Source: Cenococcum geophilum
Taxonomy: Eukaryota
Reading direction: 5' to 3'
DNA: 64,000 nt
Assembly (NCBI GenBank): GCA_050273025.1
Contig: CP158635.1
Span: forward strand, 6,634,001 to 6,698,000
In this document: positions 632 through 43,223 of the stretch, piece after piece
How the letters are laid out: the number at the start of each line of letters is the position of its first letter
Numbering within the stretch: the stretch's first letter is position 1
Translations under genes and position numbers: made by a program
The notes under the pieces: model-generated
Seen by the model: the letters and a program-made list of their open reading frames with translations, nothing else
What the model was told of the DNA's origin: nothing
Databases searched by the model: none

Positions 632-829
632 AGCGGTCTGGAGTACGCCACTAATTATCTCTATGCGCCACACAGGGAGCTTGGACTCTAGAGAACCTTC
701 TTGATAACTGTGTATGCTCCCCTTTTCCCAACATCGAGCAACTTCACAAGTTCACATTAACAGAAATTCCGAACCTCGAGCGGCTTTCTTCAAGTACAAT
801 CCGCGGCACCTTTTATCTACTAGGCAGGC

Positions 830-5292: not shown

Positions 5293-5309
5293 CGCGAGCC
5301 TAACTTTCC

Positions 5310-6050
5310 TATAGGCGATATAGTCTAGGTTGTAATAAAGAACTAAAAGATAGAACGGCCTAGCTATAAGCTAGACTATCAGATAATAGGACTATATAAG
5401 ATTCTTAAGAAGATTGGCAACTTATATAAAGTAAAGCTCCCAAATTTAATAAAGGTTTACTCTATTTTCTTACTAGATAAGCTATAAAAAGCTATAGACA
5501 ACCTATTACCCGGATAAAAGAATAAACTTCCCCTGCTAATTTAAGTTAATAGCGACAATAAATAAAAAGTTAAACAAATTCTGGCCTATAAACTTGCGAG
5601 GGGAACGCTAAAGTATTATATTAGCTAAAAAGGATATAACCTAGACCTTATTTAGTACTCTATATAAAACTTTATAGGTAGTCCCTATAAGCTTTAAAAG
5701 TTCTATAGTTGTTACCCTAATAAACCTAAACCACTAAAATACTTAGATAAATAAATAGAATGCTAGTATAATAAAGACAATAAGCTACTGGAAAAGTATA
5801 AAGATAAAAACGCCCTATAGGTATAATACGGACTATAAAGCCTAAGGGCAGGCTTTTATAGAGGGGGGAGTAATATTACAGTACTAGCAAATTGCTATAA
5901 ATTGCCGTAGATTATCGTTATATAACGTAAAGATTGTATAAAATATTAAGCGGCGCTAGTCTTCTTCTCCTTTCTTCTCTTTAGCTTTGGATCCTTATTA
6001 TAAACAATCCAATTATATAGGCTTGCATGCATCCTTCTTGCTATACTTAT
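5310..6050 (+). mobile_element. 3' fragment of a chromodomain-containing Ty3/Gypsy LTR retrotransposon (integrase C-terminus, chromodomain, PPT, start of 3' LTR), RIP-mutated
   Basis: De-RIPed reading resembles KNWKTERPSHKLD...GPYKILEKIGNSYKVELP...EWEVEQILA...LKY.VSWKGY.PD..W. A polypurine tract agaggggggag at ~5860-5870 is followed by an LTR-like start at ~5874. The right boundary is approximate. Confidence 0.8.
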
Positions 6051-6237
6051 ACCTTAATTAACTAAGTCGCTAATAGGGCCCGTCCTAGTAGAGAATCCTA
6101 ACTATAGCGACTCTAGATAAAATGCCCTAGATATAAATAGAAGACGTGTATAAGTTACTAGATAAGCTATAAAAGGGTTAATAATAGTATAATATAACTA
6201 CGGACACTTAAACTATAGAGTAACTTGCCTTCTATTT

Positions 6238-6453
6238 TGTTGGTTATATAAGGGGATATTACGTAGCTACGGTTCATAGATAGTATAATGATTGTTCTAT
6301 GTTCTTCTTAAAGAAAGGGGTAAGGAACTTAAGGTTCCTTACCACGCTAGTGCCGCGGCGGCACGTAATGGTAACTTGCCGCACGTAACGGCAACTTGCT
6401 ATATATGACGGCAATATACCTTATATAGTAACTATTTGCCTTTATTCCCAATA
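6238..6453 (-). repeat. Copia 3' LTR
   Basis: tgttgg...cccaata, near-identical to 17693-17908; a purine-rich tract adjoins it on the minus strand. Confidence 0.92.
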
Positions 6454-9400: not shown

Positions 9401-10481
9401 ACAGAAGTTAAAGTTATAGTTATCTTTAAGGGTAAACTTAAATCGGCTAGGGGACCTCTGGTTTATTTAGCAGTAATAATAGTATTTTATAAAATACTTA
9501 ATTGCCTTAACCTTAACTTTATAGCCTACTCACTAAAGAACCCTAAGTAATTAGTAAACTAATAGGTAACTAAAACAATGGTGTAGTTGGCGTAACTCTA
9601 ACTTAGTTAAATAGCTTTAAGCAACACTCTTTTCTAGTTATTAAAAGAGCAGCTAAGGGTAACCCTACTTACGTATAATAGGCACCCAATTATCTCCCTA
9701 TATAAGTATATTCTTAAAGTTATTAAGCTTAACGCCTAGTTTATCTATATCTTTAATGCAAAATAAAAATAGGGTATTTATAGGAATAACGTAAAAAGTA
9801 ATATACCCTAAGGGGGTTTAAACCCTAATTATGCCGAGAGAGATTATAGTACCTTTACTAAAACGAATCGTGTATTAGCCTACCGTTAAATAGTTAATCT
9901 AAATAGAGCTATTAAGCTGCTAAAGGGCTCGAACTTAAGGTTCTTCTACTATAGATACTCCTACGGCTCTAGTATCCGGCATAATACTATAGAAGACGTT
10001 TACTAAGTATCTATTATTAAAGGAAAACGCGGAGCTCTCCTTTAGCTTATTAAAGATATCTAACTTCGTAATAAAATAGAGCGTAGATTAGTTATTAAGA
10101 ACAGCGACGGTTTATATACTATTTACCTTACCATACTTAGTAAAGTATTGGTTAGGTAAGTAGTCCTTAATTTCTATATTTATAAGGAGCTGTTTGGTCT
10201 CATTAACCTTACCCTTAAGATCTTTTATACCTTTATATTAAACCAAGAAGCTTTAGAAGTAGGCCGTAGTAACCTTATAATTTCCAACATTTTTTATACT
10301 CTAACGGAACTTATTATATACCTCTTTTCACTTATTAAGGGAGTGTCTAGTTAACCAATAATTTGGCTTCTTATAAATATAGTACTTTTTCTAGCGATTA
10401 CTTTAAAATAAACCTCTACTAGGGCCTCTACGGTTGCCTTATAGTTAATATTAATTATACCTTCTTCTATATTCCCTACTA

Positions 10482-13400
10482 AGAAGTGGCAGTCCCACTA
10501 AGAAGTCCTTAATAATCTTAACCTAAGAAAGGAGCTCTTGCTGCACCTGGCCTAAAAAGACCAAAACCAACCAAAAGAACCCTAAAAAACACCCAGAGAA
10601 TCCCCCTAAGATGCATGCATCGCAGGGAAGGCACACGTTAAACGACGGTGGCTCGCACTCGCGCGCGACCGCTAGAACTACGCCTAGCAATAGCCCTCTA
10701 TAACAAAGACAGGCGAATACCACACTATAAAGCGGAAATACCTCTATTAAGAAGGCATCTGATAAAATATAAAGCCTATTAGACGCGTCTAGTATTTAAA
10801 ATTGTGGGGGAGTAACTATTAGCCATAATAAACTAATACAGCTAGTAGAATAGCTCCGCTAGTTTAGCGAACCTTAGGCGCCCCTCTAGCAAACCCTTAA
10901 TTAAATCCTCTAATGGCTAAGTAAAATTAAAAACAAGTATAACCCCCCCTTACCAGCAAACCGCACCTAGGCTGCTATAGTGGCGCTTTTATAGCATAGG
11001 GAACCTACCCCCCTTAAGTTAATAACTGGGTATATAATTATAATATAACCAAATACAGAATAAGTAGAGGGGCTTAAGGGACAATTAGAAATAGAAGTCC
11101 TTATAAAGATATATAAAGAGGTCTATAACGCTATTATAGTCTAATACCTTAAGAGCGGAGATATTAGAGTTACCTTAAAGGACTAATAGGCAAAGGAATA
11201 AGCCGTAAGGGCAGGGGATAGGCTAGGAGAATGTATTGGTATAAAAGTACTCTGTAAGGATTACCTAGTTAAAGTCCTAGCAGTTCCTATAAGCCTTAGG
11301 GTAGAAAAGGGACGCTAGGTAGACAATATAGCAATTATATAGGAGATAGTAAGACAAACGGAACGCCTTATACTAGGATTTAAAATTACCTAAATCCAAT
11401 AGCTTTAATAGAAAAATGTAAACTAAGTATATAATAAGAATAACGAGAGGATATAAGGGTCGCCGGAGACTCGCTAGGGAGACGCCGGACGAACGTATAG
11501 CTCCCTTATTATTAGTACACATATACTAGGAATGCAAAAACTCCTTATCTAAAAAGGAATAATTATAAATGGCCTTATATACAATATAAGGCTCTATAAC
11601 TATAGACTACGCCTAGAATAATGCTATCGCTATATATAATAGGGATACACTTAATCTATATACGCAGTATAGGCGTGCTGCGGCCACTGTGCAGGCCCCT
11701 ATAATATAAGATATTACTTAAATTAAGACTAAACAAAATACGCGAACTGCCACCAAAGCACATATAAAGCGTGGGAGAGAGAAAACTACATTAAATATAG
11801 GAGACGGAAGGTAAGGGCTTAATAGCTGCGGGAATAACTGCACGCTAGGTTATATAAATGGAAACAACAGGTAATAAGCTAGGGGGACGCAGGCGCCTTC
11901 CTAGTGTTTCCTACCTTTAATACTAGAGGGCTAGGCCAGCCATCCCAAGCCTTAACGGGCTAGAAGCGACGCCGTGCGATATTACTAGACCGATTAGGGA
12001 TATAAGGGTCACAGGGGACACAAGGGAGAGGACGCCCCGTAGGAAGACCCCTATAGACAGCAATAGCAGGCTTAAGACCAGGACAATTAAGAATTAGACT
12101 TAATACGGCAAATATAACATTCGCAGCCAACCCATAAAGGGTATATAGCCGACTAGTAAGAATAGGGGAAGAACCGGTAATAATAATAGATTTAGATATA
12201 GAAGCGCTAATAGGAATATAAGATATAGGAATAGAAAGCTCTATATAAAATAAGTAGTAACTAGGGTATAAACACAAGAGATAGAAGCTCTAAATATCCT
12301 AGAGAAAGTAGAAATAGAAGAAGTAAGGAATAAAGGAAAGTTAAAGGACCCTTACTGGGGGTCCGCCACCTATCCATTATATAATATAACTGCGGCAACA
12401 CAAACTACTGCCTTGTAAGGCCCCTACTAGACAGTCTAGACCTAGAAAAACACTATATCCTTACTATACAAGAACCGTATTACAATACCTTTACACAATC
12501 AACATACTGCCCTTAAGGATTCTAGCTCCTATACGAACCAAAAGCAGCTATACACGTATGCTTTATAATTAGTAAGGCTATTAGCCTATTCTTATAGTTA
12601 TAGCAGGCAGTTAACCTAGATATTATAGTTATAATAATCCAAATATATAGGGGACTGGTATAAATTATTAATGTATATAACCCTAGGGTCGAAGGGGTCC
12701 TATAAACAGAGAATATTATATCGGTAATAAGCTTACTAGAAACTAAAGGTATAGAGTCTATCCTACTAGGAGACATAAACCTCTACCACCCGCGGTAGGG
12801 GGGTATCCATATTACTGCAGATTAACAGTTAGAGTGCCTACTAAGAGCTATAGATATTTAGGGCCTTAAGCTAGCCACCCCCCTAGGAGCAATTATATAG
12901 CAATAAGGCACCACTAGAAGCATAATTAACCTCATATTTATAGACGAAGGCCTATATTAGAGACTTAAAAGGTACAACCCTAAAGAAGAATAGGCACTTA
13001 CCCTAGACTATATCCCTATCCAAATACAGCTAGACCTAGATACTAAAGCGCAACTAAATAAAAAAAGATACGCAATAAGGAAGCTTAAGACAGATAGTTT
13101 CCTTAATACAGTTAAACAACAACTCTAAAACCTAAAAGAAATCCACTTAATACCAAACAAGCGAGGCTTATTAGCTACCCCCAAGGAAATCAACCAAAGA
13201 CTAGAAAGGATCCAGGCAGCGATTAAAAATAGGCTAGAAGAGCACTACCTAATCTTAAAACCGGGCCCCTACGCGCGACACGTATAGTCTACATAATACG
13301 TAGTTCTGGTTACCAGCTAATAATAAGCAAGAAGGAAATATATAAGCAGCCATAACCCTAAAGATAAGAGACGATATAAAGACACAAGAAACCAGCTAAA

Positions 13401-16071
13401 GAATACCCTAAAAAAAGAAGTAAGGAATAACTAGAGATGGTTTATAAACAAGCATACTTCTAACCCAAGCCTCCCCTATAATAAGGGCCTTTAGGCTATA
13501 GCGAAATAGGCAAAGAAAAAGGCAGGGCGCTTAGCAGAAGACCTATACCTACCACCCCTATAAAGAGCAGGAGAATTATAGGCCATAAACGACAATAATA
13601 AGAAGGCAAAGATCCTTATAGAAAGGTTCTTCCCCTAACCAGCTCCAGCAAACCTTAGTAATATCACAGGCGAAATACTAATAACTCGCCTGCGGGTTAA
13701 CAGCGACATAATAACAGAGAAAATGGCTAGAACTATTAGCCGCCTTTTAAATAATATAGCACCAGAACTAAATAGGATTTTAAATAAGGCCCTAAAAACC
13801 TATAGGCTATTTATAGCACCTTAGCTTATAGATATAGCTAAAGCATGCTTTATTATAGGCTACTACCCACAACTTAGAAGACCTATAACAACGGTTATCC
13901 TATAAAAAGAAGGTAAAGCAAATTACTTAATCCCAGGAAGCTACCGCCCTATTACCTTAGAAAACACCCTTAGCAAGATCTTAAAAAGGGTAATAGCGGA
14001 ACACATAGCAGACACGGCAGAGGAACACGCCCTACTACCACAAAGCCAAATAGGGGCAAGAAAGAACCGCTTAATACTATTAGCACTTACGCTACTTACT
14101 GCCACCATTAAATCTGCATGGGCGATATAAAAGGACTTTATAGTATTAATGCTTAGCCTAAACATTAGTAGTGCCTATAACAATATACCCTATAAGCGTC
14201 TCCTATATATCCTTAGGGCAAAGGGCTTCCTAGAATAGATTATATAATTTATCCAAGGGTTTATAGGCTAGAAAGAAACATTACTAGTCTTTAGCGGATA
14301 CTAAAGCCCCCCTATTGTAGTTGCAACAGGAATACCACAAGGATTACCCCTCTCGCCTATACTCTTCCTTTTCTTTATAAGCAACCTACTTAACTCCTTT
14401 AAGAAAAGGGCGACCTAGGGGATAGGCTTTGTTAACGACACAAACCTAATTATATACGGGCCAATAGCTATAGAGAATTGCAGAACACTAGAGAAAGCCT
14501 ATAATACTTATATAGAATAGGCAAAATGTTATAGAGTCCAATTCTCACCAGAGAAATACCAGCTAATCTATTTTATAAGAAAACGCAACCAATCTACAGA
14601 TCTCTAGCATATAATTCGCATCTAAGGCTTTAGGGGTTAACCAGTTTAGGGCCTAAGGGTATTAGGAGTATAGGTAGACAGCAAGCTCCGGTGGAGCGCA
14701 TACGCGGCATAAGCGGCCCGTAAAGGCCAAGCATAGTTTATTGCTTTATCTAGGATTGTTAATTCTACATAGGGTCTATGCTTCTAGAGGTCACGCCTAC
14801 TATATACAGCAGTCGTCCGGCTAACCATGACATATAGATCTAGTATTTAGGCCATTGGAGAAACTAAGAAGGGCCCCCCTAAATTACTCCTTAAACCACT
14901 TTAAAAGGTCTAGACAGCCTGCCTTTAGAGTATTATAGGCGGGTATAAGCGAACGGCCACAGCACTGCTTAAGAAGGAATCTAATATTCCCCCCCTATAG
15001 TTATATATTAAAGCCGCTGCAATATAAAGGACGTAAAATAAATATAACTCTAATGTCATAAAGTATATTAAGACACGCCTAAGTAAACTATAGAAGGACT
15101 TTAGGGTGCCCTATAGGAGAATAAACTAACAACCCTAAAGTAGGGAAGAGATATTAGAGAAACAGGTAAAGAAAGCAGAAGAAAAATAGTGCCGCTTTAG
15201 GGCCCAGGCCCATATAGAGGAGGAAGGGAGACGCGTAAGAGGTTAGCAAAGATAGTAAGATAGAGAAAGGAGCTAAAGTAGAACACGTAAGAACGCCGGG
15301 AAACCATCTACCGCAATGTAATACTGGTTGGACTAACGCTAGAGAGGTAAATAGGAGTTAAAGGTATAGAGGCTGACTTAGGCAAGACGAACCTAAGCTA
15401 TAGTATGGTTAACGCCATGGGGGGTAAATACCTAAGGGCTCTAAGAAGGCCTAATAAAGGCAGAAAATATAATAGCAACACTCTTAAGAACAGGAATAAT
15501 AGGACTAAAAGATTGGCTTTACTAGGTGGGTGTCCTAGTAGGTAGCCTGAGATGCGAATATAGCTGGCCAAAACAGACACCAAAACACGTAATACTACTA
15601 TGCCCCCTACACACCAATTGAGAAATAATGCTCTTAGCAGCTGGCATAAAGAACTATAATACACTGCTCTTAATATAAAAAGGCCTTAAGGCGGTCACCC
15701 AGTGGCTTATTAGTCAAAATGTGCTAAATCAGTTCTAGGTTATAAGGGAAATGGTAATAGAAGGCAAGGGGGCAAGCAGCAGGTGCCCCCTAGTAACTCT
15801 ACAGTAGTAGAGTAATAGTTTATAATACTAGCGCGTCCGTAGGCTTGTTACGGCAGCAGTGGTTCCTAAAGAGGTTAAACAGTAAGGTAGTAGAGCACTA
15901 TAGGCAACTCGTAGGCGCTAAGTAGGCGAGTCCTAAAAGGCGGGGAGATGGATTATGGGGTTTTCTTATTTTTCTTAAATAGAGTTTTCTCCCTATATGT
16001 AAATAAGGAGTAGTCCGCGTGGGCCCAATAGGGATCCAAATCGGACGTTAAGCAATGAATTATTAATTAAT
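10482..16071 (+). mobile_element. Full-length Tad-like LINE, copy 1 (RIP-inactivated)
   Basis: 14-bp TSD tatattccctacta (10468-10481, 16072-16085). ORF1 zinc knuckles at ~11620-11770. ORF2 has an endonuclease (QYNCG, QEP, GD.NLHHP), an RT (GSYRPITLENTLSKI, GIPQG.PLSPILFLFF, GFV(D)DTN) and a C-terminal C-x-C...H...C finger at ~15553. Colinear with 47286-52855. Confidence 0.95.
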
Positions 16072-17692
16072 TATATTCCCTACTACGGCCACTATATATT
16101 TAATTAGTCTAGTTATAATTATATTAGTTAGGAATACTTAGTTAGGTAGGGTTTTTAGTATAAAACTATTAAGATTTTTATGTTTATATTATAGTACCTA
16201 TAGCGGAGCGTAGCTTAGTATATACTCCTTTAAACGTATCTATAGGTTTATATAGCGCTAAGTTGCACTTAGGAACGCTATAGTATGCTAAGATAACCTA
16301 GTCCCTTAGGCTGTTTTTATTTTAGTAAGTTTTAGTAAGGCTATATTAAATTTTCTAAAGTTTATTAAAGAGTAGTTAAAGGCACTCTAAATAAGTCTTT
16401 ATTAGGTTAGAAGTAATAACTCTTTAGAATATAGTCTCCCGCCATTTAGATATATAAAGCTAGTAATTCTTATTAGTCTTAAAGTAGGCTCTAATAAGCT
16501 AAAGCATTATATTAAAGCTATAGTTTTTACCCGTAATATAGTTATAATAGAATATTACTGCCTATCCCTTTAATATAATAGAGAAAGTATAGTAGTACTA
16601 GTGGCGTTAAATTTTAACCTTATTATAACAGTTATAGAAAACCTATAGTTTTGCTCCGAGCATATTATATAATTCTCCTCTAAACTTCTTCTCTTCGTCT
16701 AAATATACCTTTATTAGATTCGTAACTTCTTATAATAGAGGCTTATTAGTTAGCTAGAGTAAAGGAGGTAGAGGCGGAGCAACTTTAAGTAGGAGAGTAC
16801 CTCTAGGTAGGGGAGCAGCTTTAGGTAGGGGGTTAGCGTTCTAGGGGTTTTAATATAAATTAAAGTTGCCTTCTAAAGAATATAGGTTATTTTTAGGTTT
16901 CCATAGTTAACGTATAATCTTAGCTTTCGTCTATATTGGTTTATCTATACTAATAATAACAGCCTAAATATTGCTAGCAATTGGGTTACCGTTTTTAGTA
17001 ATATATACCCTATTCCTATAGAGAAAGTCTTAAAAATCCTAAATAATATTAACGTTGCTAAGTGCCTAGGTATTAGCAGTCCATCCTATAAAATCCTCTT
17101 TAAAATACTCCCATAGTTATAAGTTGGCGTAATATCTATTTTAGTAAAATATAATATAGTGTAAAAGAAAGCCGTTAACTTATTTTGCGGTATAAGTTAT
17201 TATATTAAAGGCGAATTTGTCCCAGTCTTTATTAATAAGTTTCGCGTGCTTAGCTACCCTTAGTGGTAAGGAGTCTTTCTAGTTATTTAAAGTAGGCGTA
17301 GCCATGTTTTTAGAGGGAGGGAAGTATTATTAGTATAGGGATTGTCATTTAGTACGCGTTTATAATATATATTTATTATTTAGTACACGTTTATAACGTG
17401 TATTTGCGATTATAGGGCTTAGGACTAGTTCTAGCCTTAAATCGCGAAGACTTATAAAGCGTGTTATTCTACGTAATAGACGTAAGAATCCATAATCTTA
17501 AAAAGGCTTAGGACTAGTTCTGGCCTTTAGATTCTTAGATTTATAGAAGAGTTCTATTTAAGGTTTAGGACCAGTTCTAACCTTAAAAGACAGCTTCCTC
17601 TAGCACGAGTAGCACTGGTATAGTAGCTCGTCTCTTCTTAGTGGAATACCTTGCTGTTCTATAGTATAATAGTAAAGTTAACTACTAATTAG

Positions 17693-17908
17693 TATTGGTT
17701 ATATAAGGGGATATTACGTAGCTACGGTTTGTAGATAGTATAATAATTATTCTATATTCTTCTTAAAGAAAGGGGTAAGGAACTTAAGGTTCCTTACCAC
17801 GCTAGTGCCGCGGCGGCACGTGATGGCAACTTGCCGTACGTAACGGCAACTTGCCACACGTGACGGTAATATACCTTATATGGTGACCATTTGCCCTTAT
17901 TCCCAACA
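17693..17908 (-). repeat. Copia 5' LTR
   Basis: tattgg...cccaaca, partner of 6238-6453. Confidence 0.92.
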
Positions 17909-18000
17909 TATTTAATAGCCTTAACCTTAAATTTAAAAAAAATAATAGCCCTATAAGAACTAGCATTTAATAATAAAACCCCTATAATATATACTAACTA

Positions 18001-18192
18001 TGTCACGGAACCCCACCGCAGGGGCCTCCATAGGAGAGCCCCGTGCTCTCGCGTACACCTCGCGTACAGCTTATGTCAGCTACGCGTAGGTATATCACCT
18101 CCTTACGCCCTCGACCCTTACGATCGATCGCGCAACGTCTTGTAGACTCCTCGAATACATACGTCTTGTAGCCACTGCCCCGTCCCGTGACA
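18001..18192. mobile_element. Solo LTR (192 bp)
   Basis: TGTCACGG...CCGTGACA termini, 5-bp TSD AACTA on both sides, GC-richer than the flanks. Confidence 0.9.
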
Positions 18193-18992
18193 AACTAAAA
18201 GGATATTGCCTCTTATATAAACTAGCCTTAGCTACCTATATATACTTCCTAATTAGCTAATATATTAATATATAGGCGTAAAGCTACTACACTATTAGCT
18301 CTAATATAGCTAAACTATAAATAGCTATAGATAGGTACTAAATTAGTATAATTAACGTCTATAACCTAAGAGATAATAGACTTTAGATAACTATATAGAG
18401 ACTACTATTAATATAGTTAAAGGCGAGGTAGTAATTCTAGGGGACTTTAATATATACTATATAGTATAGGGAAGATAGTAGGCTATAGTATAAGTATAGG
18501 TAATATACCTACTTAATAAACTAAAAACGTAAGGCCTTGCCCTAACTACCCTAACTAGTAAATCTACCTAAAAAAGAGGGATTTAAGAGAGTATAATTAA
18601 CCTAATATTTATATAAAAAGTACTTATAAACCAGTTAGCATTCTATAGGCTAGAAGATATATAGGCAATTACTATAGACTATATACTTATATCGATATCC
18701 TTTAATATTAACGCTATAGTATAATAAGCTCGCTAGAGAATCGCTATATAAAACTTAACTAAGAAATTTACTCCAAGAAAATTACTAATAGACTAGTAAT
18801 AATATTAAAGATAACGCTAGAGAATATCTAAAGGACTATAAGTAACTACTTAAAAGGATACTACCTAAAAGCCTAGCCTAGTAAATACGTCTAATATAGA
18901 TAGTCGCTAAAGGCGGTATAGTTATTTATAGATATAAGGAGGGTAAGATAATAGTATAGTATAATAGGTAAGGCCTACTACTACTAGAGCTA

Positions 18993-19334
18993 TGTAAGGG
19001 CGCGAAGAGGCTTCAGGGCAGATTCGAAGGAATGATATAAATTCTATCTAAATCTATGGGTATAGCTCTTGCAGAGAATAAGACGTTGCGTAAAGAAGAG
19101 AAAGGAATGACAAGAGAGTTATATATTAAATAGTCAGGGGTCTTAGTGGTCGATGCGTGCGCACGTGCGTACGCGGTCTTCGACTGACTTCGGTAGAATT
19201 CGATGGATCTGGCAGAACTTGGCAGAAGTCGATCAAGCTGGCAGAATTCGGCAGAATTTGGTCAAAGCGTCGGAATTCATCTGTCGAGTGTTTCACCGAG
19301 ACATTCCTACTGCAACTGGGCTAGTCCCGTTACA
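18993..19334. mobile_element. Solo LTR (342 bp)
   Basis: TGTAA...TTACA termini, 5-bp TSD AGCTA (18988-18992, 19335-19339). Confidence 0.9.
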
Positions 19335-20606
19335 AGCTATAAGGTCCTAAAGAATAGGCTTAAAAAGATAATATAAAAGGAGAATAGAAATAGCTAGCGC
19401 CAATTCTTAGAGAAAATTACCTTAAACCTTACTAAACTATATAACTAAGGCTTTTAGCGTATATTAAAGTGGAGTAAAAGAGCTATAGGGGAAACGCTAG
19501 GAGACCTTTACCTATTTATACTTTATTAAGTAAAATAAAACTAGTATATAAATAATAATAGGGGGAATATAAAAATACTAGTAGAGAAATTCTTTTTAGG
19601 TATATACTAAGCAGACCTATAGAATATTAGTAGTTAAGACTACCCCCTACCTCTAGAGATAAGCTAAATTGTCTTAATAAAAGAAATAAAAGACGCTATA
19701 TAGAAACTCCCTACTAGTAAAGCGGCTAAATTAAATAGGATCCTAAATAAGGCAATTAAAGCTATATTAGAAGCTATAATAATACTACTAGCTAATACTG
19801 TAGCTATCTACCTCTTTAATAGTAAGCTACTAAAATACTATAAAGCAACAACAACAGCTGTTCTATAAAAGGTAAATAAAAAGGACTACCCCCTCTCAGG
19901 GAGCTACCAACCAGCTACCCCCAAAAACACGCTAGGAAAGCTCCTAGAAAAGATAGTAGTAGAATATATAAGAGGCCGTAGAGGCGTAAGGGCTATTACT
20001 ATAGACGTAAATGGGCGTAAAAAAAAGGCGATTAACCCTCTTAGCACTCTCCCTAATTACCTCTAGCGTTTAGTAGGAAACTTGTCTCCGGATAAAGGAC
20101 AGGAGATTGGTCGAAAAGAGAATCGCTCGATGACGGAGAGGTAAAGAAGTAACAGTCGGTGGTCAGCCTAACATAGTGTGACAGCATGCCGGAAAACATG
20201 GCTTTGCAAGTGCAAAGGTGGGGCGCCTAAAAGGGGCGGTGTGAAGTTCAGAATAGAATGGATCATGGTATGGTCGATATTGTTATAGAGCTCCCATCGG
20301 GAATTGCTAATAGCGCCCTTATCTTTAATTGGAATACTTTTTGGGGATGCTAAATATCATTTTCATAAAGCTTCATCAATTAGATCGTTACTATTAGATA
20401 TCTGAGTCTTACCTGGTATTCTAGCATAGAAAATTGAATGAACGTACATGGCCACTAGTAACTCTACACGTGCTAGGTTAGCTCGACGTTTTAGCCACAA
20501 GCCCCGCGCGCGACGACAGTTCAGAAAATATCCGTCAATCTACCAGCTTTCTATTATCTAGCAAACCTATTTACATCACCAAACTGCGGTTTATCAATAT
20601 TCATAT

Positions 20607-23335
20607 ATGGCTTTTACTTCATCGACGTCTGAAACACCCGTCTTTGTCAAGCCTGGTGACCTGCGCACAGAGCTCTTCGATGATAGACCAAGTTGGGCCC
20701 AAGAATTAGCAACAACAACCGCAGAAGCCCCTTCAACGAATACTGGCCTTGAGTTTTGGGTGCATCAACAATTTTTTGACATAGGATTCAAAGCTAAGAG
20801 CGGATTCATTGGGTATAAAAAGTTGCAGAAAAAGCTGCGTGCGCTTAATCCGCAGTACGGGGGTGAAATATCTACCATAATTCAAAAGTAAGGACTTCAT
20901 CTGCTCGTTTGCTCGTTTCTGACATGATACTATATAGGCTTCGCCAGCCAGGTCATGAGCTCAGTTTCCCGGTCCCCGAATCGGTCGCAGCTACTAGAAA
21001 GCAACGCCCGCAATCACTAGGATTGACTCCTAACGTAAGAATTTCTACATCGGGTGGTTTTAAAATTCTAATAGCTCCTAGGCTAGTTTAACCCAGTCCA
21101 TTTACAACACCAATGCCCTCCAGTCCATTTCCAACAGAAATGCCGTCCAGTCCATTTACGGCAGAAATTCCGTCCAGTCCATTTCCAACACCAATGCCCT
21201 CCAGTCCATTTACGACAGTAATGCCCTCCAGTCCATTTATAACAGTAATGCCCTCCAGTCCATATATAACAGCAATGCCCTCCAGTCCATTTACAACAGC
21301 AATGCCCTCCAGTCCATTTACGATAACAATGCCGTCCAGTCCATTTACGACAACAATGCCGTCCAGTCCATTTACGACAACAATGCCGTCCAGCCTATTT
21401 ATAACAGCAATGCCGTCCAGCCTATTTATAACAGCAATGCCGTCCAGCCTATTTATAACAGCAATGCCGTCCAGCCTATTTATAACAGCAATGCCGTCCA
21501 GCCCATTTATAACAGCAATGCCGTTACCAACACCAAGGAACAGCCTACCCCATCCGGCCCTATGCAAATGAAAAGCTCAAGTGTGGTGAGTTTAACATGA
21601 GCTGCACGTTGGTATGACGGCTTAGAATTGGTTCAGGTACCACACAGTGGACAACAAGGAGTGGCTGCACGAAATCAGGGAAGCACAGTCGCCCCAAAAA
21701 CATCTAGTGAGTTGTCTAAGAACTAAGAGTGATGCAAGAACTGAAAGTCTAGCCTTACCAAGCGGTGTCAAAGACCACAGTAAAACAGAAAATTCTACAA
21801 GACATCCACAGGCATTGGCGAGCGACAAGCCGTCTTCTCGTCTCAATCATCAGCAAAATCTCTTGCTCGCTAAGAGGCCCAGTGATGATGGCGGTTACAA
21901 TGAACGCGAAGAATTTAGTTACGACATTCGTAATGCGATTCTAGTTTCTGCGAACATTGTTGAAGAAACCGACGAGAAAATCTTACCCCAATACGGCCTT
22001 CTTGGGAGCTTTCACTCCGACGACTGTCCACAATTGAAGGACCCGGGAGACGACAGAATCTTCGTCAATACGAACATCCCATTCTCGGCATTTATTTGCG
22101 GAGTTCAAGGAAGCGGAAAAAGTCATACTACCTCATGTTTACTTGGTGAAACTTACCTAGAATTACACCCATATGCCCCCCAGCTAACCCGGTTGCTTCA
22201 GAGAATTGTCTTATTCCTTCTCTAATGCTCGGGCACTTAGAGAAACCGCTATCTGCACTCGTGTTTCATTTCAGCGAGTTTACCTCCCGCACTAGCTACA
22301 ATCCTAGTGAAGCTTCGTTCCTATCCATGGCTCATTGCGACTTCCCAGACCACCCTACCGCATTCCACACAAATGTCATGGTCCCTCCGTCCAATTACTA
22401 TAACTTGAGTCAGCTCTATACTCAAATCCCGAAGGTCAATGTTCATCCGTTCAAGCTGAAGCCACATATGTTAGACGTAGGTACAATGCTCGTGCTCATG
22501 GCAGTTGACCAATCCAAAGATAAATCACTCTATATGGCGCAAGTTACCAAAATCCTGAGAGATATAGCCACGGAACGTAATGGTGACTTTGATTATCTCG
22601 ATTTCAAACGGAGATTAAGTAACCAAAAATTCGATCGAAAGCAGAGAGACTTTCTCAACCAGAGGCTTGATCTGCTGGAGTCATTCTTGGATCTAGATTC
22701 CTCATCCACCGACCTTACCTTCGGGGCTGGTGAGGTTACTATCATAGATATGTCTTGCCCTTTTGTGGATTCCAACACTGCGTGTGTTTTATTCAAGATT
22801 GCAATGAGGAAGTATCTAGAGTCAAGTGTTGCTGGAAAAATGATTGTTCTAGACGAAGCTCATAAGGTTCGCATACCTAGCATATCCTGTGTCTTACATT
22901 GCTGACAAGATTCAGTATATGATCGATACGCCTGGTGCAACGGATCTCAATGAATTTCTTCTCACGGTTATTCGCCAACAACGCCACTTTGGGGCACGTG
23001 TCATAGTGTCAACCCAAGAACCTACGATCTCTACTCAACTGATCGATTTATGTGCGATTACCGTCATTCATCGCTTCACGAGTCCTGATTGGTTTCGGGC
23101 ACTGAAGACGCACATATCAATCTCCTCCAGCAGCACTGAAGATGAGAAGGACGAGAAATACCTATTCCGAAAGATCGTCAACCTCCGTACCGGCGAGGCA
23201 CTGATATATGCACCCACGGCGGTGCTGGGGAAAGATCTTACCGGCAAACCGACCAAGGCTACAGAGGAGCTCCTAAAGGTGAGCATACGCAAGAGAGTCA
23301 CTTGGGATGGAGGCCAGTCTATAGTATGCGTGTAG
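20607..23335 (+). CDS. Spliced gene: unknown N-terminal domain, 16x 9-aa N/Q-rich repeat, and HerA/FtsK-like P-loop ATPase
   Basis: Proposed exons: 20607-20887, 20938-21034, 21082-21585, 21637-21706, 21753-22146, 22202-22866, 22916-23335, joined in frame by GT-AG introns. Motifs: Walker A GVQGSGKS, Walker B IVLDEAHK, R-finger RQQRHFG, VIVSTQEP. The ATPase part is firm; fusion to the 5' exons is inferred from splice phases. Confidence 0.75.
21094..21525 (+). repeat. Coding minisatellite, 16 x 27 bp
   Basis: Unit cag tcc att tac aac agc aat gcc (c/g)tc with variants; 16 contiguous units counted. Confidence 0.95.
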
Positions 23336-23352
23336 GATAAGGGCTATATAGT

Positions 23353-24365
23353 AGTAGTTCTTTGATTAACGTCTGATACGGATCCTATCTAGGCCCACGC
23401 AGACTACTCCGTCACAGGGGGAAAACTTGTGTATTTACAGGAAGAAAACCCTGCAGTTGGGTTGGGGGAGGAAAAACCCTATGAGCCACCTCAGTAGGAT
23501 GAAAAACCCCGATTTGCCATGTCCGTCCGTAGCAGCGGCCCTACGGGTCTACGGCTACGTCCTGTCCCCCTTGGATGTTTTAAACTCCTTGGGAACTACT
23601 GCTTCCTTCTCTAGCTTATCCTAAGCTGGGGTTCACTACGTCCCAGCCAGGCCTTGCCGATCAATCACCGTGTCTTATTGTTATTTCCCATATTTTGACT
23701 GTCCCCTATATGCTATATCTTGCTGACCATTACCATATACGCCATGCCTCCCCCCCCCTAAGGTCTATTGAAGGCGTAAGGGGGATTTATTTATAAACTA
23801 CTATTATACCAAAAGGCGAGCGGGACGTGTGTGTGTGTGCCTGGGTATCTTTTATACCTAGGCCCTAGTTGCTAGGCCCTCGCTAAGGGTCACCACTCCT
23901 TAAGAGGAGACAGGAAAACCGTACGGTATTGTCCAGGCTGCCAGGTAGTATTTGATAGTTGATGGCAAGTGACCGCATGCTCCGCGGGCGATCGCCCTAG
24001 GGGTTGGGAGGGGCCGTATACTTACTCGTTGCTCGTTCGCAATCGCTCGTTCGTCGATATAAGGTCGTCGATGCTTTCAATTAAGGGTTGGGGGACGTTG
24101 GATTCTGTATGTATCCGTAAGGATTACACAGGGTTGGAATAGGAGAACATAGCAGTAGTCTACTAAGAAGGGGGTACCGTTAGTAGTGGTTTTCGAGATC
24201 TCACCATCCCATGTGAAAACTTTTCACTACCCCCCACAACGTTTCGACAACCACCAGGTCCTACCCGCAGCTGTGCGACGTCTCTGCGTTGGCTCTACTG
24301 AGTCCGAAGACCAGTAGGTTCGTAGGCCTCACCACGTACAGGTGCAGAGTCCGATTTCGAGGACC
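23353..24365 (-). mobile_element. ~1 kb non-autonomous, LINE-mobilised (SINE-like) retroelement
   Basis: 17-bp TSD gataagggctatatagt (23336-23352, 24366-24382). The minus-strand 3' end ggagtagtctgcgtgggcc...ggatccgtatcagacgttaatcaaagaactact matches the 3' tails of the LINEs. No recognisable coding region. Confidence 0.85.
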
Positions 24366-24449: not shown

Positions 24450-25350
24450 AAAGTCTATGAAGATGGCGCGAGGAGGGAGGTGCTTTTGGAAACAGAAAAC
24501 AAAGTTATAAACATTGTCCAATAGAAAGCTCATTAATAGTCCTGTAACAGCAGTTAGGGCCACCTCATGCACAGTACCAAAATACGCCTTTTTAAAATAT
24601 ATCTTAACAAACATAATGGCTATTTATACAAAAATTTAAATAGGGCCTATTAAATAGTGAATAAAGCTTTTTATAAAACAAAAAAAAAAGTATAATATAA
24701 AAGTATTATATAAAGTATAATTTTTATACAAACATCTATTATGGTTATTAAGATATAAGTATTTTAAAAGGATGTGCTTTGGGCTAACTCGCTTACATTT
24801 ACTACTTTCTATAATAGAGTAGTGTTAAAGAATAGTAATAAAATGCGTACAAACTGGGAGGACTACTGTCGACCTGAATCGGGATTCCTTACCACCATCG
24901 AACTACTGTCTGGCGACCTAGATCGTCTTTACGTACTATGTCTCTTAACTTATGACTAAATGTCTTATCGAATGTCTCATTACCTATTTTCTATTACCTA
25001 TTTGACTTAGTTGCCTGGACCTACCTAATCTATATAGAGAGTTTCTAGAGCCATATTCAATAGACAGAGTCCTTATCCTGTATTGTCCGTTCAACAACTA
25101 CTATTAAGTATAGCCCATGGACTTAGTAGTAACGCCTAGCTAGTAACATCCGTAGACTTACCTAATCCTTAGAGATAGTAGGACAGCCATTAAGTTATAA
25201 ACTCTATAGCAGGCTTTACAGTAGGCTCTGTAGCAAGTTCTACCGTAGGAGAAGAGTATATAATTAAAAGATTATATCTAGATTAGGTTACGGCCTACGG
25301 ATAAGATAGCTAAAGCCAAGAAAAAGAATAAATCGTCTAATCCTTAGAAA
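24450..25350. repeat. Unclassified AT-rich, RIP-like repeat debris
   Basis: TpA-rich, stop-rich, no recognisable motifs or termini. Confidence 0.4.
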
Positions 25351-27894: not shown

Positions 27895-30319
27895 ATGACC
27901 CGGGAATCCTCACGTCGCGACCACACTCGGCACGAACCCAGAGATAGAGACCGAGACCGCGACCATGACCGGGACCGCGATCGCGAACGAGAACGCCAGC
28001 GGCGCCGCCGTGGTCACCGCGCAACTGACAGTACCGGAGAGCTTCTCCCTCCAGTCACTCGAACACCGCGAGATAGCGCTTCCGAGAGCCCGAGTCCAAG
28101 GAAGGTGAGGGGTTCGGATAGAACGAATGGTAGTAGAAGCAACCCGCTTTCCCTAGGTAGTTTAGCGAAGCTCGATTCACAGAACTTGAAGCGAGGTTGG
28201 AAGGGTTACGACTATGACTCGGAATATGTTAAGGAGGTGAGGCAGAAGGAGGCGAGGATGGAGAAGGAGAGACTGAGGGAGGAGGCACTAGAGAGAAAAA
28301 GGGAGAGAGAGCGCGACAGAGAAAGGAGGAGAGCATATGAGAGCGATAATGCGCAACAGGAGCATGAGCGAGTAACAGTAGAAAGGAGAGAGGAAGAGAA
28401 GAAGAGGAGAAGGCACGCGGATGATGAGACGAAAGAGAGACGGAAGAGATACACGGAGTCTGAGCGGGCAGAGAGGAGAGAGCGGCGGAAAGCCCAGAGA
28501 GAAATTCCTGCGAACCAAAGGAGGAGGGTTGTAAGTGGTCCGCTCCTAGAAGAAGGTGGCAAGGACGAGGTGCATGAGTATATGGCAGAGAAGACGGGTG
28601 GAGCTGGTAGCGATGGGTATACTGACGAAGAGTGGGCACGGAGAAAGAGGAAGCGTATATGTGAGAACAGAAGTTTCCGGCATTCCGGCTATGGTCTAAT
28701 CAATCTATTTAGGTATTATTGTTGGGGTCATTATCTTGATTCTAACAATTGTAATAGTGGTCGCAGTGCTGATGTCAAAGAAGAACTCTGACCCTGTAGA
28801 GAGCAAAGCTGCAGCCAGTTCGCAAAAACCTTCGAACAGCAACTTGAATGGCGTTTCCGAATCCTCTATCCCTTCCTCTGCCCAAGGCACAGTGTTAGAC
28901 CCTTTCACATGGTATGACACGACAGACTTCAACGTCACATATACCGATGCTACAGTCGGCAGTCTTTCTATTATGGGACTCAATTCAACTTGGGATGATT
29001 CAGTTCAGGCGAACTCTAATGTTCCAGCCCTAAAAGATTCGTTCAATTATGGTACTACGCCAATTCGGGGTATGAACGTGGGTGGGTGGCTGAGCATTGA
29101 ACCCTTCATTACACCGTCCTTCTTCTCAGGCTTCAGTACACATGATGGGGTAATAGACGAGTACACCCTCACCTCTAAACTCGGATCTACGAAAGCAGCG
29201 CAGACTTTGGAAAAGCACTATGCTTCCTTCGCCACAAGACAAACTTTTGAGGATATCCGTGCAGCTGGTTTCGACCATGTCCGTATTCCCTTCTCCTATT
29301 GGGCTATCACGACCTACCAAGGCGATCCCTACGTACCGAAGATTTCGTGGCGATATCTGCTCCGTGGGATCGAGTACGCCCGACAAAATGGCCTGCGAAT
29401 AAATCTAGATCTCCACGGCGCACCAGGCAGTCAGAACGGATGGAACCACAGCGGTCGTCAAGGCTACATTGGCTGGTTGAATGGCACGGACGGAGACTTG
29501 AACGCTCAGCGCACCCTCGACATCCATGGCCAGCTCTCTACCTTCTTCGCCCAGCCTCGCTACAAGAACGTCGTAACTATGTATGGCCTCGTGAATGAGC
29601 CGCGTATGGTCGCTCTAGACACTCAATCTGTGCTCAACTGGACCGGAAAAGCCATTGACATAGTCCGCAAGAACAATATCACTGCCGTCATTGTCTTCGG
29701 CGACGGCTTCATGGGTCTAGACAACTGGCAAGGCAAGCTGCAAAACTACGACAATCTGCTCCTGGACGTGCACCAATACGTGATCTTCAACACCGACCAG
29801 ATTGCACTCAAACACACCGACAAGCTGACCTTTGCGTGTAAAGGCTGGACCACGCAAACGCTGCGCTCGCAGAACAAAGCCACCGGCTTCGGCCCGACAA
29901 TGTGCGGCGAGTGGTCGCAGGCCGATACCGACTGCACGCAGTACATCAACAACGTCGGCGTCGGGAGTCGCTGGGAGGGCACCATGAACACGGGCAGCGC
30001 TTCGACCTCGGTACTCGATCCCACCTGTCCAACGCAGAACAATCCGGCCTGTGAATGCACTGACGCGAACGCGGACCCGTCGAAATACTCGGCCGCGTAC
30101 AAGCAGTGGCTGCAGCAGTTTGCAGAGGCGCAAATGGAGAGTTTTGAGCAGGGGTGGGGCTGGTTCTACTGGACGTGGGAGACAGAGGCGGCAACGCAGT
30201 GGAGCTGGAAGCTCGGAATGGCGGCTGGCATCCTGCCGTCGAAAGCATACGATCGGAACTTTAATTGTAATAACACCATTCCAGATTACGAGCAGTTGGG
30301 GTTACCGGAGAACTATTAG
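27895..30319 (+). CDS. exgD: Type II membrane-anchored GH5 glucan 1,3-beta-glucosidase (ExgD-like)
   Basis: Charged R/E-rich N-terminus, one intron (~28661-28712), a TM helix, then a GH5 domain with RGMNVGGWL, DHVRIP, DLHGAPGSQNGWNHSG, NEP and CGEWS. Confidence 0.9.
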
Positions 30320-32987: not shown

Positions 32988-33965
32988 CTAGGTGCTAGTC
33001 ATATCAGGTTTTGCCATCTTCTCCTTGCCTTTTTCGGGTTTGGACTTGTCATCATCCAGGTAGAGATCATTTTCGTAAATATAATCAACAACTTTGTCTG
33101 GAATGAGGTATCGTATGCTCATGCCTCGTTTGCGGAACAGTCGAATTTTGGTGGAACTACACGCTAAGTCAGTACTTGGTCACTATATCAAGGCAGTGCT
33201 AACTCACGAGACGTCGTTTTGAATCAACTGCTGGATCACCCTAATATTGCCTCGCCATTGTTGCAGGCTAGCAAGCGCATCATCTAGCAAGTTTGTTTAG
33301 TAGGTTTACTATTTGTTCTTAGGTAGGCAGAGCTTACCTATATCTGTACCACTCCGCTCGAGGATGAATGCCCCATAATGGCCGAGGATTCTTTCCAAGT
33401 CCTCTTGTGCCCACAGACCGGGCGTACTCATTGTCTGTATAAGATCCGCGCCGGCCAATAGAGCCACATGGATCTTCTTCTTTTCTCCTGTGTATGTCTC
33501 GATACCTCCAAGAACTTTATTGAGATAATAATCGAAATGGTCTAGGACCTTTACGGTGGGAAGGTATTCTTTGTGTAGCGGCTCCCACGGATCCACTCCA
33601 ATCCAGGTAGAGCTCTGTTTCACGGCGAGGTTACACATTGTGATCCTGTGTTGAGCTGAGACAAGGCCAGCCTTCTTGTAGGCGTCGCCGACAGGACTGA
33701 AGAAGCCGCCGACAACCTCGAAGTCGGTCTGAAACTCGCAGTAGTCGGCGGCCTGCTCGAACATTCGTAGGTGTAGGTTCGTAGGAGGCGAGAATGACCC
33801 GCAGGAGACTAGGACAAGCGGGATTTTGCCTGAGTCTGAGAGGAATTTCTTCAGCCTATCTGCCGGAAAAATGTAGTTCTCCAAAGTGAGAGCGGCCTTT
33901 TGCTGGGTGTCACCACCATGGGTAATTCCATCATCCGCGACAGCGAGCTTCGGTGAGTTTGCCAT
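32988..33965 (-). CDS. NMA1: Nicotinamide/nicotinate mononucleotide adenylyltransferase
   Basis: CGSFSPPTNLHLRM, FSPVGDAYKK, LAGADLIQTMSTPGLW and NDVSSTKIRLF...SIRYLIP; two introns; stop TAG at 32988-32990. Confidence 0.95.
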
Positions 33966-35506
33966 TGTTGCTGCTCCCGTCTTCTTGTGTTTTGGTACAA
34001 GGTGCAGGTAGGTTTGACGATGTTTCTTGCGCTCGGCTGAGGTTCAGAAGGACTGACTGGACCCTTGAGAGTATGACGCGACTGCCTGGGGGTTCTTGCC
34101 GGGTTAGTAAGGCGGAAGGAGCGGCAGTTTGCGAGACAACGACCGCGACGCAATATGGTTTGTTTATGGGTGAGACAGTCTCGGCTAGGAGGAAGCAGCT
34201 GGAAGGGGAATGGGGACTAAGTACTTGACTGGTGGGCGCGACATTTCTTATGGTCTTAGGAAGCCCTTTGGCCTTTGTAGCGGCGGGGTGGGAGTCTGCG
34301 GAGGGGAAATTTACCCTTGACCCTTGAACAAGCTCGGTTGAGACCCTTTAAACTCCGAGCTTGAACAGGCTCTGATAGTCACGATTACTCGACTGCGCAA
34401 GCCTTTTGCACAATACTTCTCTGTGCTCGTGGAAGCAGTGCAAGAGGAGCAATTATTCCGTGACGGTATTAATCATCACTGCATGATGCGCTGAAAAGTA
34501 TCATCTTGGTGCGAGAACTATCTCGTGGACTCTTGGGGTAGCCTCCCCACACGGGTGATTGACAATCTAGGATTGCTAATACTAGCAGAGGAGCGCGGGA
34601 TTCCGATGGTGGATGGATCATTTAGGAAATCTGTAGTGTCTGAGATCTGCGGTCTAGGCTCTGAGTGATCCTCCAGTTTAGTAGTGCAATAATAGCGTTC
34701 AGCGTATGATGTGGCGTTGTGTAGAGGGAGGCGTCCGACAGCCCTGCTCCATGGAGGCCGGAGAAGTAGCATGTCTCTCGATACATTTATTCGCATGCTG
34801 GCAAAGGGCAGCGCCTTCCAGAGAGTGCATGTATATAGAAGCGGGTGGGCCTTGGCCGGCCATTGCTCGCATGCTCCATGAAAAGTGATTGCGAACCGGG
34901 TTATGCCGCCTATATGCACAGCTGCAAACACGCACTCCGGTCTGGCGCATGTCGAAATATCCTCCTAAATTCTCATCAGAGAAAGGAACGGCAGTGTGCA
35001 GGTTACCAGGCCGAAACGTGCGGCAGCATCTGTGGAACTCAAGGCTCTGTATAACAAGTCATCCCACTGCATTAAGCGGGACCAAGCAGCGACGCCATCA
35101 TTATCATCTCCATCTCAACCGTCGCAGGATAGCCGTTGCCCACACCGTCTCCATCATCTACCGAGACGTACTTCCACACTTCGACGCACTGCATCACGGT
35201 TTTGTTCCATTCTAAGCACTCGTTATTCTCATTCACACGTTCGCTTGCCCGGCCTATGGCGAAGTCGTAGGGTATTGGTATGGACCGGGAGCGTCGACCT
35301 TCATCTGGATTTCTCGACAACCCAACCACCACAACTTTTCCTTCCAGGTACAGCCCCACCATCTCATCACACTATCCACCATCAGTTACATCTGTCGCTG
35401 TGTCCACAACAATCCTCTCACCTTGCTTCATCGGCACAGCTGCGAGACCCACCGCCGGGGTCACAGTCTGGGTTGCGAGCCATCAATACCAAGCAATTAG
35501 ATTCTC

Positions 35507-42506: not shown

Positions 42507-43223
42507 GGGCATGTTCGGTTGCAGCTCCATATTCAATATGGAGGCTCTATATTGTAACGGAAATGGAGCTCAAATATAAATATGAGGGTGTTGTTCGGTA
42601 AATCTAACGACTTTTAAATATGGAGCCCCTCCATATCGGTAAGCGCGTCAAATTTGCAAGCTATACTATATACAGTAGTTATAATAAGGTTCTTAGCACC
42701 GTTTTAATATAGAGCTTTAAGCTCCAGTTCTATATTCTATATTAATCTGGAGCCCTTATATACGCGCTAAAGTAACAACTTTTAATTGTAATACTGCTGT
42801 CGCATTTACATGCCTTATATAATATTATTATTCTAACCTTCGTGGTTATAATAAGCTTATTTTTAAGGCGTCGCGGGTATTATTATAGCTCTACTATAGC
42901 TCCTATGGGAGGCGGGTAAAGATATAGGAAACGTTAATTGTAGAGAGGGCGTTAGCCGAGGAGGAGGCTCTATTGCTACACTAAAGTAGGGAGTCGCGAT
43001 AGAGGCCTGGTGGTAGAGAGGGGCTTATTTAAATTTCTTACCAACGTTAATTACGAAGTTAAATATAGAGCCTTATTCTAGAGCTGCAACCGAATAATTA
43101 ACTTAATTATAGATTTAAATGAGCTACGGTAGTAGCCGCCACTAATTACAAAATGGGCGACACTAAAAGGCGCACGGATTGAACAGATTATAATATGGAG
43201 GCGATTTGCAACCGAACGTGCCC
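42507..43223. mobile_element. PIF/Harbinger-type non-autonomous element, 717 bp
   Basis: TIRs gggcatgttcggttgca / tgcaaccgaacgtgccc; 3-bp TSD TTA; TIR related to that of 30781-31176. Confidence 0.88.

Follow-up and report, generated by a model that had tools for sequence, protein, structure and literature searches.

Organization and transcription of the repeat-bearing gene

The gene analysed here lies on the forward strand of a 64,000-nucleotide stretch of Cenococcum geophilum DNA (GenBank assembly GCA_050273025.1, contig CP158635.1, positions 6,634,001 to 6,698,000; hereafter the window, numbered from its first letter), which is fungal nuclear DNA with short introns. Its in-frame model has seven exons (Table 1), in which a small N-terminal helical unit is followed by a linker holding a tandem array of nonapeptides and then by a HerA-like ATPase. 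Removal of all six introns yields a coding sequence (CDS) of 2430 nt that specifies 809 amino acids (aa) without internal stops; in the fully spliced form the array thus continues in frame into the ATPase, as an initial annotation of this DNA had proposed. The ATPase frame offers no methionine ahead of the Walker A motif and upstream exons are therefore needed.

Tandem Repeats Finder delineated one array at 21093-21524, with a period of 27, 16.0 copies, 91% matches, no indels and a score of 570. The consensus unit CAG TCC ATT TAC AAC AGC AAT GCC GTC encodes QSIYNSNAV and, when used as a pattern against the 64-kb window, produced 15 matches at up to 3 mismatches, all of them in register within the array, while the sixteenth unit, at 21148, is more than 3 bases off the consensus. 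No copy of this DNA unit was found in the window outside the array, and 100 shuffles gave an expectation of 0. The peptide of the repeat exon, read from 21082, begins with ASLT and proceeds through QSIYNTNAL, QSISNRNAV, QSIYGRNSV, QSISNTNAL and QSIYDSNAL to three copies of QSIYNSNAL, three of QSIYDNNAV and five of QPIYNSNAV, which is letter for letter the repeat listed in the initial annotation; TNTKEQPTPSGPMQMKSSSV lies directly C-terminal of the 16 nonapeptides. The 144 residues of the array comprise N 30, S 23, Q 16, I 16, A 15, Y 14, V 10, L 6, P 5, D 4, T 2, R 2 and G 1. About one third are I, V, L or A, and charge is almost lacking.

Of the words sampled from 20560-23400, at least half occur in each of 20 public sequencing runs from 16 studies, and the RNA runs among them contain about 0.82 of these words, as expected in the absence of introns. 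Four runs were mapped to the window, including two metatranscriptomes from different studies (X8 and X16), a set of stranded raw RNA reads (X21) and a set of DNA contigs (X5). The X8 and X16 contigs have 0 mismatches to the window: a first contig runs from 20570 (X8) or 20543 (X16) to 20887 and continues through 20938-21034 and 21082-21354, and a second consists of 21474-21585, 21637-22145, 22202-22866 and a last segment from 22916 to 23375 or 23387. Five of the six predicted junctions, namely 20887/20938, 21034/21082, 21585/21637, 22145/22202 and 22866/22916, are present in both of these exact-match assemblies, and 22145/22202 is additionally crossed by 18 X21 reads. The two junctions on either side of the repeat exon had been predicted from a donor at 21035, a CTAAT branch, an acceptor at 21081 and a donor at 21586; all these signals were found (GTAAGA at 21035, TAG ending at 21081, GTGAGT at 21586), and both junctions are used. 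The first mates of X21 map to the − strand, which makes the RNA that of the + strand. The repeat exon is transcribed on the + strand and spliced.

The reading frame of the array

An open frame across an array is, on its own, no proof of coding: besides the QSIYNSNAV frame, a second + frame (SPFTTAMPS, with an ATG in every unit) and one of the antisense frames (DGIAVVNGL) are likewise free of stops there. Through splicing the array shares its phase with the sole upstream ATG, at 20607, none occurring between 20543 and 20607. The same frame is read by P0001, the best match to exon 6 (95% identical), which is an 824-aa open reading frame (ORF) on a 2669-nt Logan contig and therefore intron-free. 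The frame of the array is the QSIYNSNAV frame, the third one, as had been claimed.

We also compared the 15 distinct unit variants in all six frames. In the QSIYNSNAV frame 6 are synonymous, versus 16 of the 81 possible single changes; there are 3 and 2 in the two remaining + frames and 3, 5 and 2 in the antisense frames, of which the one with 5 contains a stop within the unit. The synonymous differences noted earlier (tac/tat, att/ata, agt/agc, gac/gat and cct/ccc) are all present, along with gtc/gtt. These counts would tip the balance slightly towards the QSIYNSNAV frame. The alternative that the array is non-coding, or is read as SPFTTAMPS or as the antisense DGIAVVNGL, can draw on the openness of both frames and on the ATG in each unit of the former. 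Against it stand splicing, by which the first ATG of the transcript leads into the QSIYNSNAV frame, the QSIYNSNAV-type frame of the P0001 ORF, the strand of the RNA, which opposes an antisense product, and the tally of 3 synonymous variants in each of these two frames as opposed to 6. On these grounds both frames were rejected, and we regard the alternative as a whole as extremely improbable.

A HerA/FtsK-like ATPase of a clade described in eukaryotes

The ATPase exons contain a Walker A motif (GVQGSGKSH), a Walker B motif (MIVLDEAHK) and RQQRHFGARVIVSTQEP. Pfam searches returned DUF87 (HerA) and Zot, both below threshold, and the NCBIfam model HerA_antiphage matched with an e-value (E) of 1.1e-5, far below its cut-off. 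A family profile compared with the PDB retrieved HerA (8xau, E 3.1e-7) and DptH (7es4, E 0.0044), and PADLOC matched mad8 over nearly the whole domain (E 3.8e-13) in addition to six HerA models. The top matches listed in a Foldseek search with the model of P0001 are HerA or HerA-related, with a probability of 1.00 and identities of 11-18%; 4d2i is the best (E 5e-12), and SIR2/HerA, HerA-NurA, DUF4297-HerA, TdpAB and the C-domain of DndH are among them. By the profile, PADLOC and Foldseek searches the downstream protein is a HerA-fold P-loop ATPase, in line with the initial annotation. We noted that mad8 (mads_8) is the best PADLOC match both of P0001 and of another family member, P0004 (E 3.8e-13 and 1.1e-17), ahead of the HerA models, a ranking that may point to the nearest prokaryotic relatives of the fungal ATPase family. 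With the prokaryotic anti-phage HerA and HerA-NurA proteins (4d2i, 8wiv/8wld, 8xau, 9x1m) the window protein shares the motor motifs and the fold (Foldseek E 5e-12 to 1e-8), but it differs from them in its N-terminal region and in sequence, as the low identity indicates, and no Sir2, DUF4297 or NurA was identified beside the window gene, whose one identified downstream neighbour is a GH5 glycosidase and whose upstream side is AT-rich.

A group of 'clade-6' HerA/FtsK domains has been described computationally in new genomic elements found widely across fungi and other eukaryotes (Nucleic Acids Res 2024, PMC10853773). As characterized in the clade-6 account of that paper, these domains carry a 4-helical insert and are extended C-terminally by a stretch bearing the signature hxhxxRxRhsxDsGx[ST] and N-terminally by one that stems from a winged helix-turn-helix (wHTH). 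The C-terminal LKVSIRKRVTWDGGQS of the window protein fits this signature; within it, R810, R812, T814 and D816 never vary among the 38 aligned members of the family, and conservation reaches 90% or more at G817, G818 and S820. Possible counterparts of the 4-helical insert are helices that the P0001 model places at 556-563, 573-588, 595-603 and 609-625, between core strands. To judge from the published clade-6 account, then, the ATPase belongs to this eukaryotic group, with which it has in common the Walker A and B motifs, the HerA fold, the C-terminal signature and, putatively, a helical wHTH-like N-terminal extension. A tandem-repeat linker, in contrast, goes unmentioned in that account in the main text. 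The initial annotation knew of no description of such an architecture; apart from the array, an N-terminal wHTH-like unit, a linker, a HerA-like ATPase and an RxR..D.G tail are already in print (PMC10853773, same account).

A probable expansion from one unit to sixteen in a predicted disordered linker

With exon 6 as the query, 2327 longer candidates were compared, of which 184 proteins matched at E <= 0.001. Among the 120 matches listed, all those that are named are ascomycete proteins, annotated as hypothetical, as AAA+/P-loop or as 'Zona occludens toxin N-terminal domain-containing', and on these listed matches the ATPase family is widespread in Ascomycota. The best match after P0001 comes from Glonium stellatum (86%). 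P0001 and the window gene are collinear, and P0001 reads ...RPQSLGSTPS ASLT QSICNSNAV TNTKEQPTLSGPMQMKSPSVV PQSRQQGVAARNQGSTVAPKTST LPSGVKDHSK..., that is, it has exactly one unit, QSICNSNAV. In tblastn comparisons exon 1 is 81% identical to P0001 residues 144-210, and the last unit of the window array with its tail aligns to P0001 residues 281-333. Relative to P0001 the window gene is without about 96 N-terminal residues, spanning two of the three helical units there, and without 34 residues of the linker, and direct sequence comparison indicates that a further 20 or so are missing near the start. The part outside the ATPase, 20607-21034 against P0001 residues 1-280, accordingly displays large structural variation between the two lineages.

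The P0001-type allele is also carried by X21: no reads fall on 21232-21543 (depth 0), variants at 21110 and 21118 change unit 1 to ..NSNAV, and the loose ends found at 21002 correspond to the additional linker segment. The X5 contigs, from another sample, match the array-bearing allele and have 0 X21-type letters at the 40 positions listed. The possibility that P0001 and the window gene are paralogues within one genome was considered; the X5 contigs make this unlikely, but contigs can drop variants and this falls short of proof. From the X5/X21 comparison we read P0001 as a probable orthologue in another lineage. Copy number thus differs between close relatives, with 16 units in the window versus 1 in P0001 and X21. 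A multi-copy array was detected in 0 of the 120 listed family members and weak two-copy duplications in 3, with the positive controls detected, and the comparison of repeat numbers across orthologues that the initial annotation had proposed hence gives no conserved domain.

In an AlphaFold2 model of P0001 built from the 38-sequence alignment (mean predicted local distance difference test score, pLDDT, 74.9), three small, confident N-terminal units of helix, beta-hairpin and helix, of which the window keeps one, and a confident ATPase at about 385-820 flank a linker. The flanking domains score 85-95, and the linker, residues 217-360, scores about 30 and is without secondary structure. The single unit, at about 281-289, is therefore predicted to sit in a 144-residue disordered linker. 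Of 102 differences between X21 and the window, 40 were classified. In the ATPase core (from 22060) 8 are synonymous versus 2 non-synonymous, and in the N-terminal part and linker 7 versus 23, which fits a constrained motor with a freely evolving remainder and a linker that tolerates insertions. The synonymous bias in the core argues that the ATPase was probably translated during the divergence of the two lineages.

The single unit of P0001, the lack of an array in all 120 listed relatives and the low pLDDT of the linker lead us to favour, as the probable explanation, the recent and lineage-specific multiplication of a 27-bp unit, in frame, from 1 copy to 16 within an expressed exon that codes for the poorly conserved, predicted disordered linker of a fungal HerA/FtsK-like ATPase. 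The units are arranged head to tail with high identity, their length is divisible by 3, and they lie in frame in an expressed exon; the array looks like an ordinary strain-specific coding minisatellite rather than a conserved amyloid or prion domain. The array would have grown, after the two close lineages split, by replication slippage or by unequal recombination among its 27-bp units, and the runs of 3, 3 and 5 identical adjoining units suggest very recent rounds of expansion. With full splicing the resulting 809-aa protein would have a tether 135 residues longer, uncharged and rich in N, S, Q, Y and I, between the N-terminal unit and a presumably hexameric motor, and the array could act as a spacer of variable length that is presumably tolerated or nearly neutral.

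Classic variable coding minisatellites of fungi occur mostly in cell-wall or adhesin proteins. The window array resembles them in its in-frame unit of a multiple of three, its location in an expressed exon, its near-identical neighbouring units and its difference in copy number between close lineages, but its host is an intracellular HerA-like ATPase and its unit is N/S/Q/Y/I-rich instead of Ser/Thr-rich. Variable intragenic minisatellites of fungi are said to have been described by Verstrepen et al. in 2005, and a general account of variable intragenic repeats is available in Gemayel et al. 2012 (PMC3899988). The locus would offer a clean, RNA-supported case of a coding minisatellite that went from one unit to sixteen between close fungal lineages, in a eukaryotic HerA-like ATPase family whose function has been discussed only computationally, and the 1-unit and 16-unit alleles would form a natural pair for the effects of linker length and composition on such motors.

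Several points weigh against the expansion of a translated linker as set out here. The RNA contigs break inside the array, and the 16 copies are spanned in RNA by no listed contig; translation of the array is something that we infer. The synonymous excess described above is weak, and the units are not independent. An array with Tyr, Asn and about one third aliphatic residues is atypical for an inert spacer, and aggregation is possible; the single-sequence model of the array discussed below, given its low confidence, is evidence neither for disorder nor against amyloid. Finally, the X8 and X16 contigs are continuous over 21637-22145, which means that intron 4 is kept where the five other introns are removed, and this retention leads to a stop after ...APKTSSELSKN and to a 323-aa product without the ATPase.

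Retention of intron 4 and the link between array and ATPase

The initial annotation had two further introns joining the array to the ATPase. The first of these joints, 21585/21637, stands in both RNA assemblies, whereas the second, 21706/21753, is absent from both and is seen only in the X21/P0001 lineage. It occurs in 4 X21 reads with 4 start positions and 68 letters on the shorter side, the X21 allele being diverged and 90-99% alike to the window, and the sequence of P0001 implies that all junctions, including that of intron 4, are used in its lineage. In the window allele the link between array and ATPase is one that we infer.

It could accordingly be argued that array and ATPase stay separate in this lineage, intron 4 being normally retained, the main product being a 323-aa protein made up of the N-terminal unit, the array and a short tail, or else a substrate of nonsense-mediated decay, and the locus perhaps decaying. 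The retention seen in two exact-match assemblies from different studies, with the five other introns out, speaks for this, as do the absence of a CTRAY branch motif from intron 4, whose GTGAGT donor and TAG acceptor are otherwise good, the stretches lost relative to P0001 (about 96 N-terminal, about 20 near-start and 34 linker residues) and the lack of a predicted database protein of the window allele, for which the best exon 6 match is 95% and not 100%. On the other side, intron 3 likewise has no CTRAY motif and is nonetheless spliced, and the 21706/21753 junction is used in the sister lineage. Assembled contigs keep a single path and may conceal a spliced minority or even majority. The ATPase exons are intact, with no internal stop in the 2430-nt spliced CDS, and the core shows the bias of 8 synonymous versus 2 non-synonymous differences against the X21 allele. 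The layout of one N-terminal unit, linker and ATPase is, moreover, the commonest in the family, as in P0004. We therefore consider an unjoined array unlikely, while giving it some weight; were intron 4 retained, the N-terminal part would be uncoupled from the ATPase.

Amyloid, prion and solenoid readings of the array

The initial annotation had seen in the array a dedicated amyloid, prion or solenoid domain on an oligomeric ATPase. In this reading the 16 units would form a functional self-assembly module, whether prion-like, amyloid or an Asn-ladder beta-solenoid, that serves as a signalling or defence switch of the HerA-like motor. The composition of the 144 residues lends itself to it (N 30, S 23, Q 16, I 16, A 15 and Y 14, with only 4 D and 2 R), and so does the strict 9-residue period, which equals that of the Sup35 oligopeptide repeats and one half of the 18 residues in a solenoid turn. 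The array RNA is expressed, HerA relatives occur in bacterial anti-phage systems according to PDB match titles and PADLOC matches, and the eukaryotic clade is placed among conflict or mobile elements in the clade-6 account (PMC10853773).

Conservation tells against such a module, as the closest relative has one unit and none of the 120 listed family members has an array, and the site is a linker with a pLDDT of 30. Modelled alone from its single sequence by AlphaFold2, the array gave short low-confidence helices and 0 strands (mean pLDDT 46.6, predicted template modelling score, pTM, 0.17), so that the structural check proposed for the repeat came out without strands; this poor model lends a solenoid no support but does not refute one, and amyloids are outside what AlphaFold2 models. 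Beta-rolls of the RTX type have the consensus GGxGxDxUx, and QSIYNSNAV does not match it. The content of Q plus N peaks at 27 per 80 residues, below the threshold of at least 30 in 80 residues for Q/N-rich prion domains that reportedly goes back to Michelitsch and Weissman in 2000. In comparison with the Sup35-type and other Q/N-rich prion domains, the array shares the 9-residue period, Tyr and Asn/Gln in each unit and an almost complete lack of charge, but aliphatic residues (I, V, L, A) make up about one third of it, it has hardly any G, Q plus N does not exceed the above maximum, and it is internal and not conserved.

The parallel with the HET-s/NWD2 amyloid motifs is that of a fungal NTPase protein with a proposed amyloid-like composition. 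The array differs from them in being internal and in having 16 units, as against one or two 21-residue pseudo-repeats at a terminus, and the NTPase of the window is of the HerA/FtsK type, not NACHT or NB-ARC. HET-s-type signalling needs a partner gene that carries the shared motif, and in all six frames of the 64-kb window no QSIYNSNAV-type peptide motif occurs outside the array; the search for other motif-bearing genes that had been suggested therefore found none within the window, and no neighbouring gene there bears the motif.

Nor did a related repeat family emerge. Word-based searches covered 7997 candidates of 295-2000 aa, with no array-like protein at E <= 0.01, and 6691 shorter ones of 92-294 aa, likewise without one at E <= 0.001. 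HMMER returned 357 matches to the array (E <= 0.001, against 1.84 billion representatives), which we rejected as repeat artefacts: the best 22 regions share only the 9-residue period and include unrelated repeats such as VGKKVYDTS, SNADDSFYS and QSNAMSTAL. The ESM Atlas yielded no lead for the array (recognition 837, best score 0.82), and Pfam searches with single exons had 0 matches above threshold. A match of the repeat exon to DUF3764 (21.5 bits versus a cut-off of 24, with no stretch passing) was taken as spurious.

Weighing these results, we judge a functional self-assembly module to be improbable. A more elaborate version, which we rate about as low and a shade lower, would make the 16-unit array a functional self-association element of tunable length, amyloid-like or condensate-driving, displayed six-fold on a HerA-like hexamer, the motor of some fungal conflict or mobile-element system. 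Strain-specific expansion would then switch or diversify activation of this system, and a free 'array-only' isoform of 323 aa, arising from retention of intron 4, could seed or titrate it. The favoured reading remains that of a recent expansion within a predicted disordered linker: on present evidence the array, which is not conserved and lies in such a linker, reveals neither a new domain nor a new amyloid signalling architecture.

Genomic surroundings

Table 1. Coordinates of the repeat-bearing gene, its parts and neighbouring genes in the window
Feature	Position	Strand	Evidence
Exon 1: start codon at 20607; encodes a single small helical unit (LEFWVHQQFFDIGF...) of the N-terminus, putatively the wHTH-like extension of the family	20607..20887	+	RNA, tblastn
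Exon 2: start of linker; without 34 residues present in P0001	20938..21034	+	Junctions 20887/20938 and 21034/21082 in X8 and X16; tblastn gap
Exon 3: repeat exon, 168 codons, phase 0 at both ends	21082..21585	+	Translation, RNA
27-bp x 16 coding minisatellite	21094..21525	+	Tandem Repeats Finder, unit table, pattern search, RNA contigs
Exon 4: 70 nt of linker	21637..21706	+	Junction 21585/21637 in X8 and X16; aligns to P0001 residues 310-333
Intron 4: 46 nt, GTGAGT..TAG, retained in X8 and X16 contigs	21707..21752	+	RNA contigs, motif scan
Exon 5: end of linker and start of ATPase; Walker A GVQGSGKSH at 22100-22126	21753..22145	+	Junction 22145/22202
Exon 6: ATPase core; Walker B MIVLDEAHK at 22840-22866	22202..22866	+	Homologues, junction 22866/22916
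Exon 7: C-terminal part of ATPase (RQQRHFGARVIVSTQEP); stop TAG at 23333-23335	22916..23335	+	Sequence motifs
C-terminal motif LKVSIRKRVTWDGGQS	23273-23320	+	In exon 7
GH5 cellulase-like glycosidase, downstream neighbour	28700-30316	+	Pfam
Cytidylyltransferase-like	33312-34043	-	Pfam
TRIP12-like TPR plus HECT ubiquitin ligase	35994-40869	+	Pfam
Sub-threshold DUF1771 match	53454-55043	+	Pfam
TCP-1/cpn60 (CCT) chaperonin subunit	60323-61369	+	Pfam

The gene stands at the edge of AT-rich sequence, the guanine plus cytosine (GC) content being 0.29-0.41 over 1-20000, and the other genes identified in the window are ordinary ones (Table 1). In the window as a whole, AT-rich blocks (GC 0.29-0.38, at 1-20000 and 42000-52000), in which no ORF of at least 220 aa was found, alternate with gene-bearing blocks of GC 0.45-0.53, a pattern typical of degraded repeats in ascomycete genomes. 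The transcript of the gene occurs in root metatranscriptomes, and this together with the match in Glonium stellatum suggests that the host is a root-associated, Gloniaceae-like dothideomycete. A high-copy element follows directly after the stop codon; from 23312 on (23312-23500 and beyond) the summed contig depth is in the thousands in DNA and RNA runs, with many indel variants and loose ends. Tandem Repeats Finder also detected three small tandem repeats of 2.0-2.8 copies in non-coding flanks, at 19190-19256, 24686-24721 and 25202-25249.

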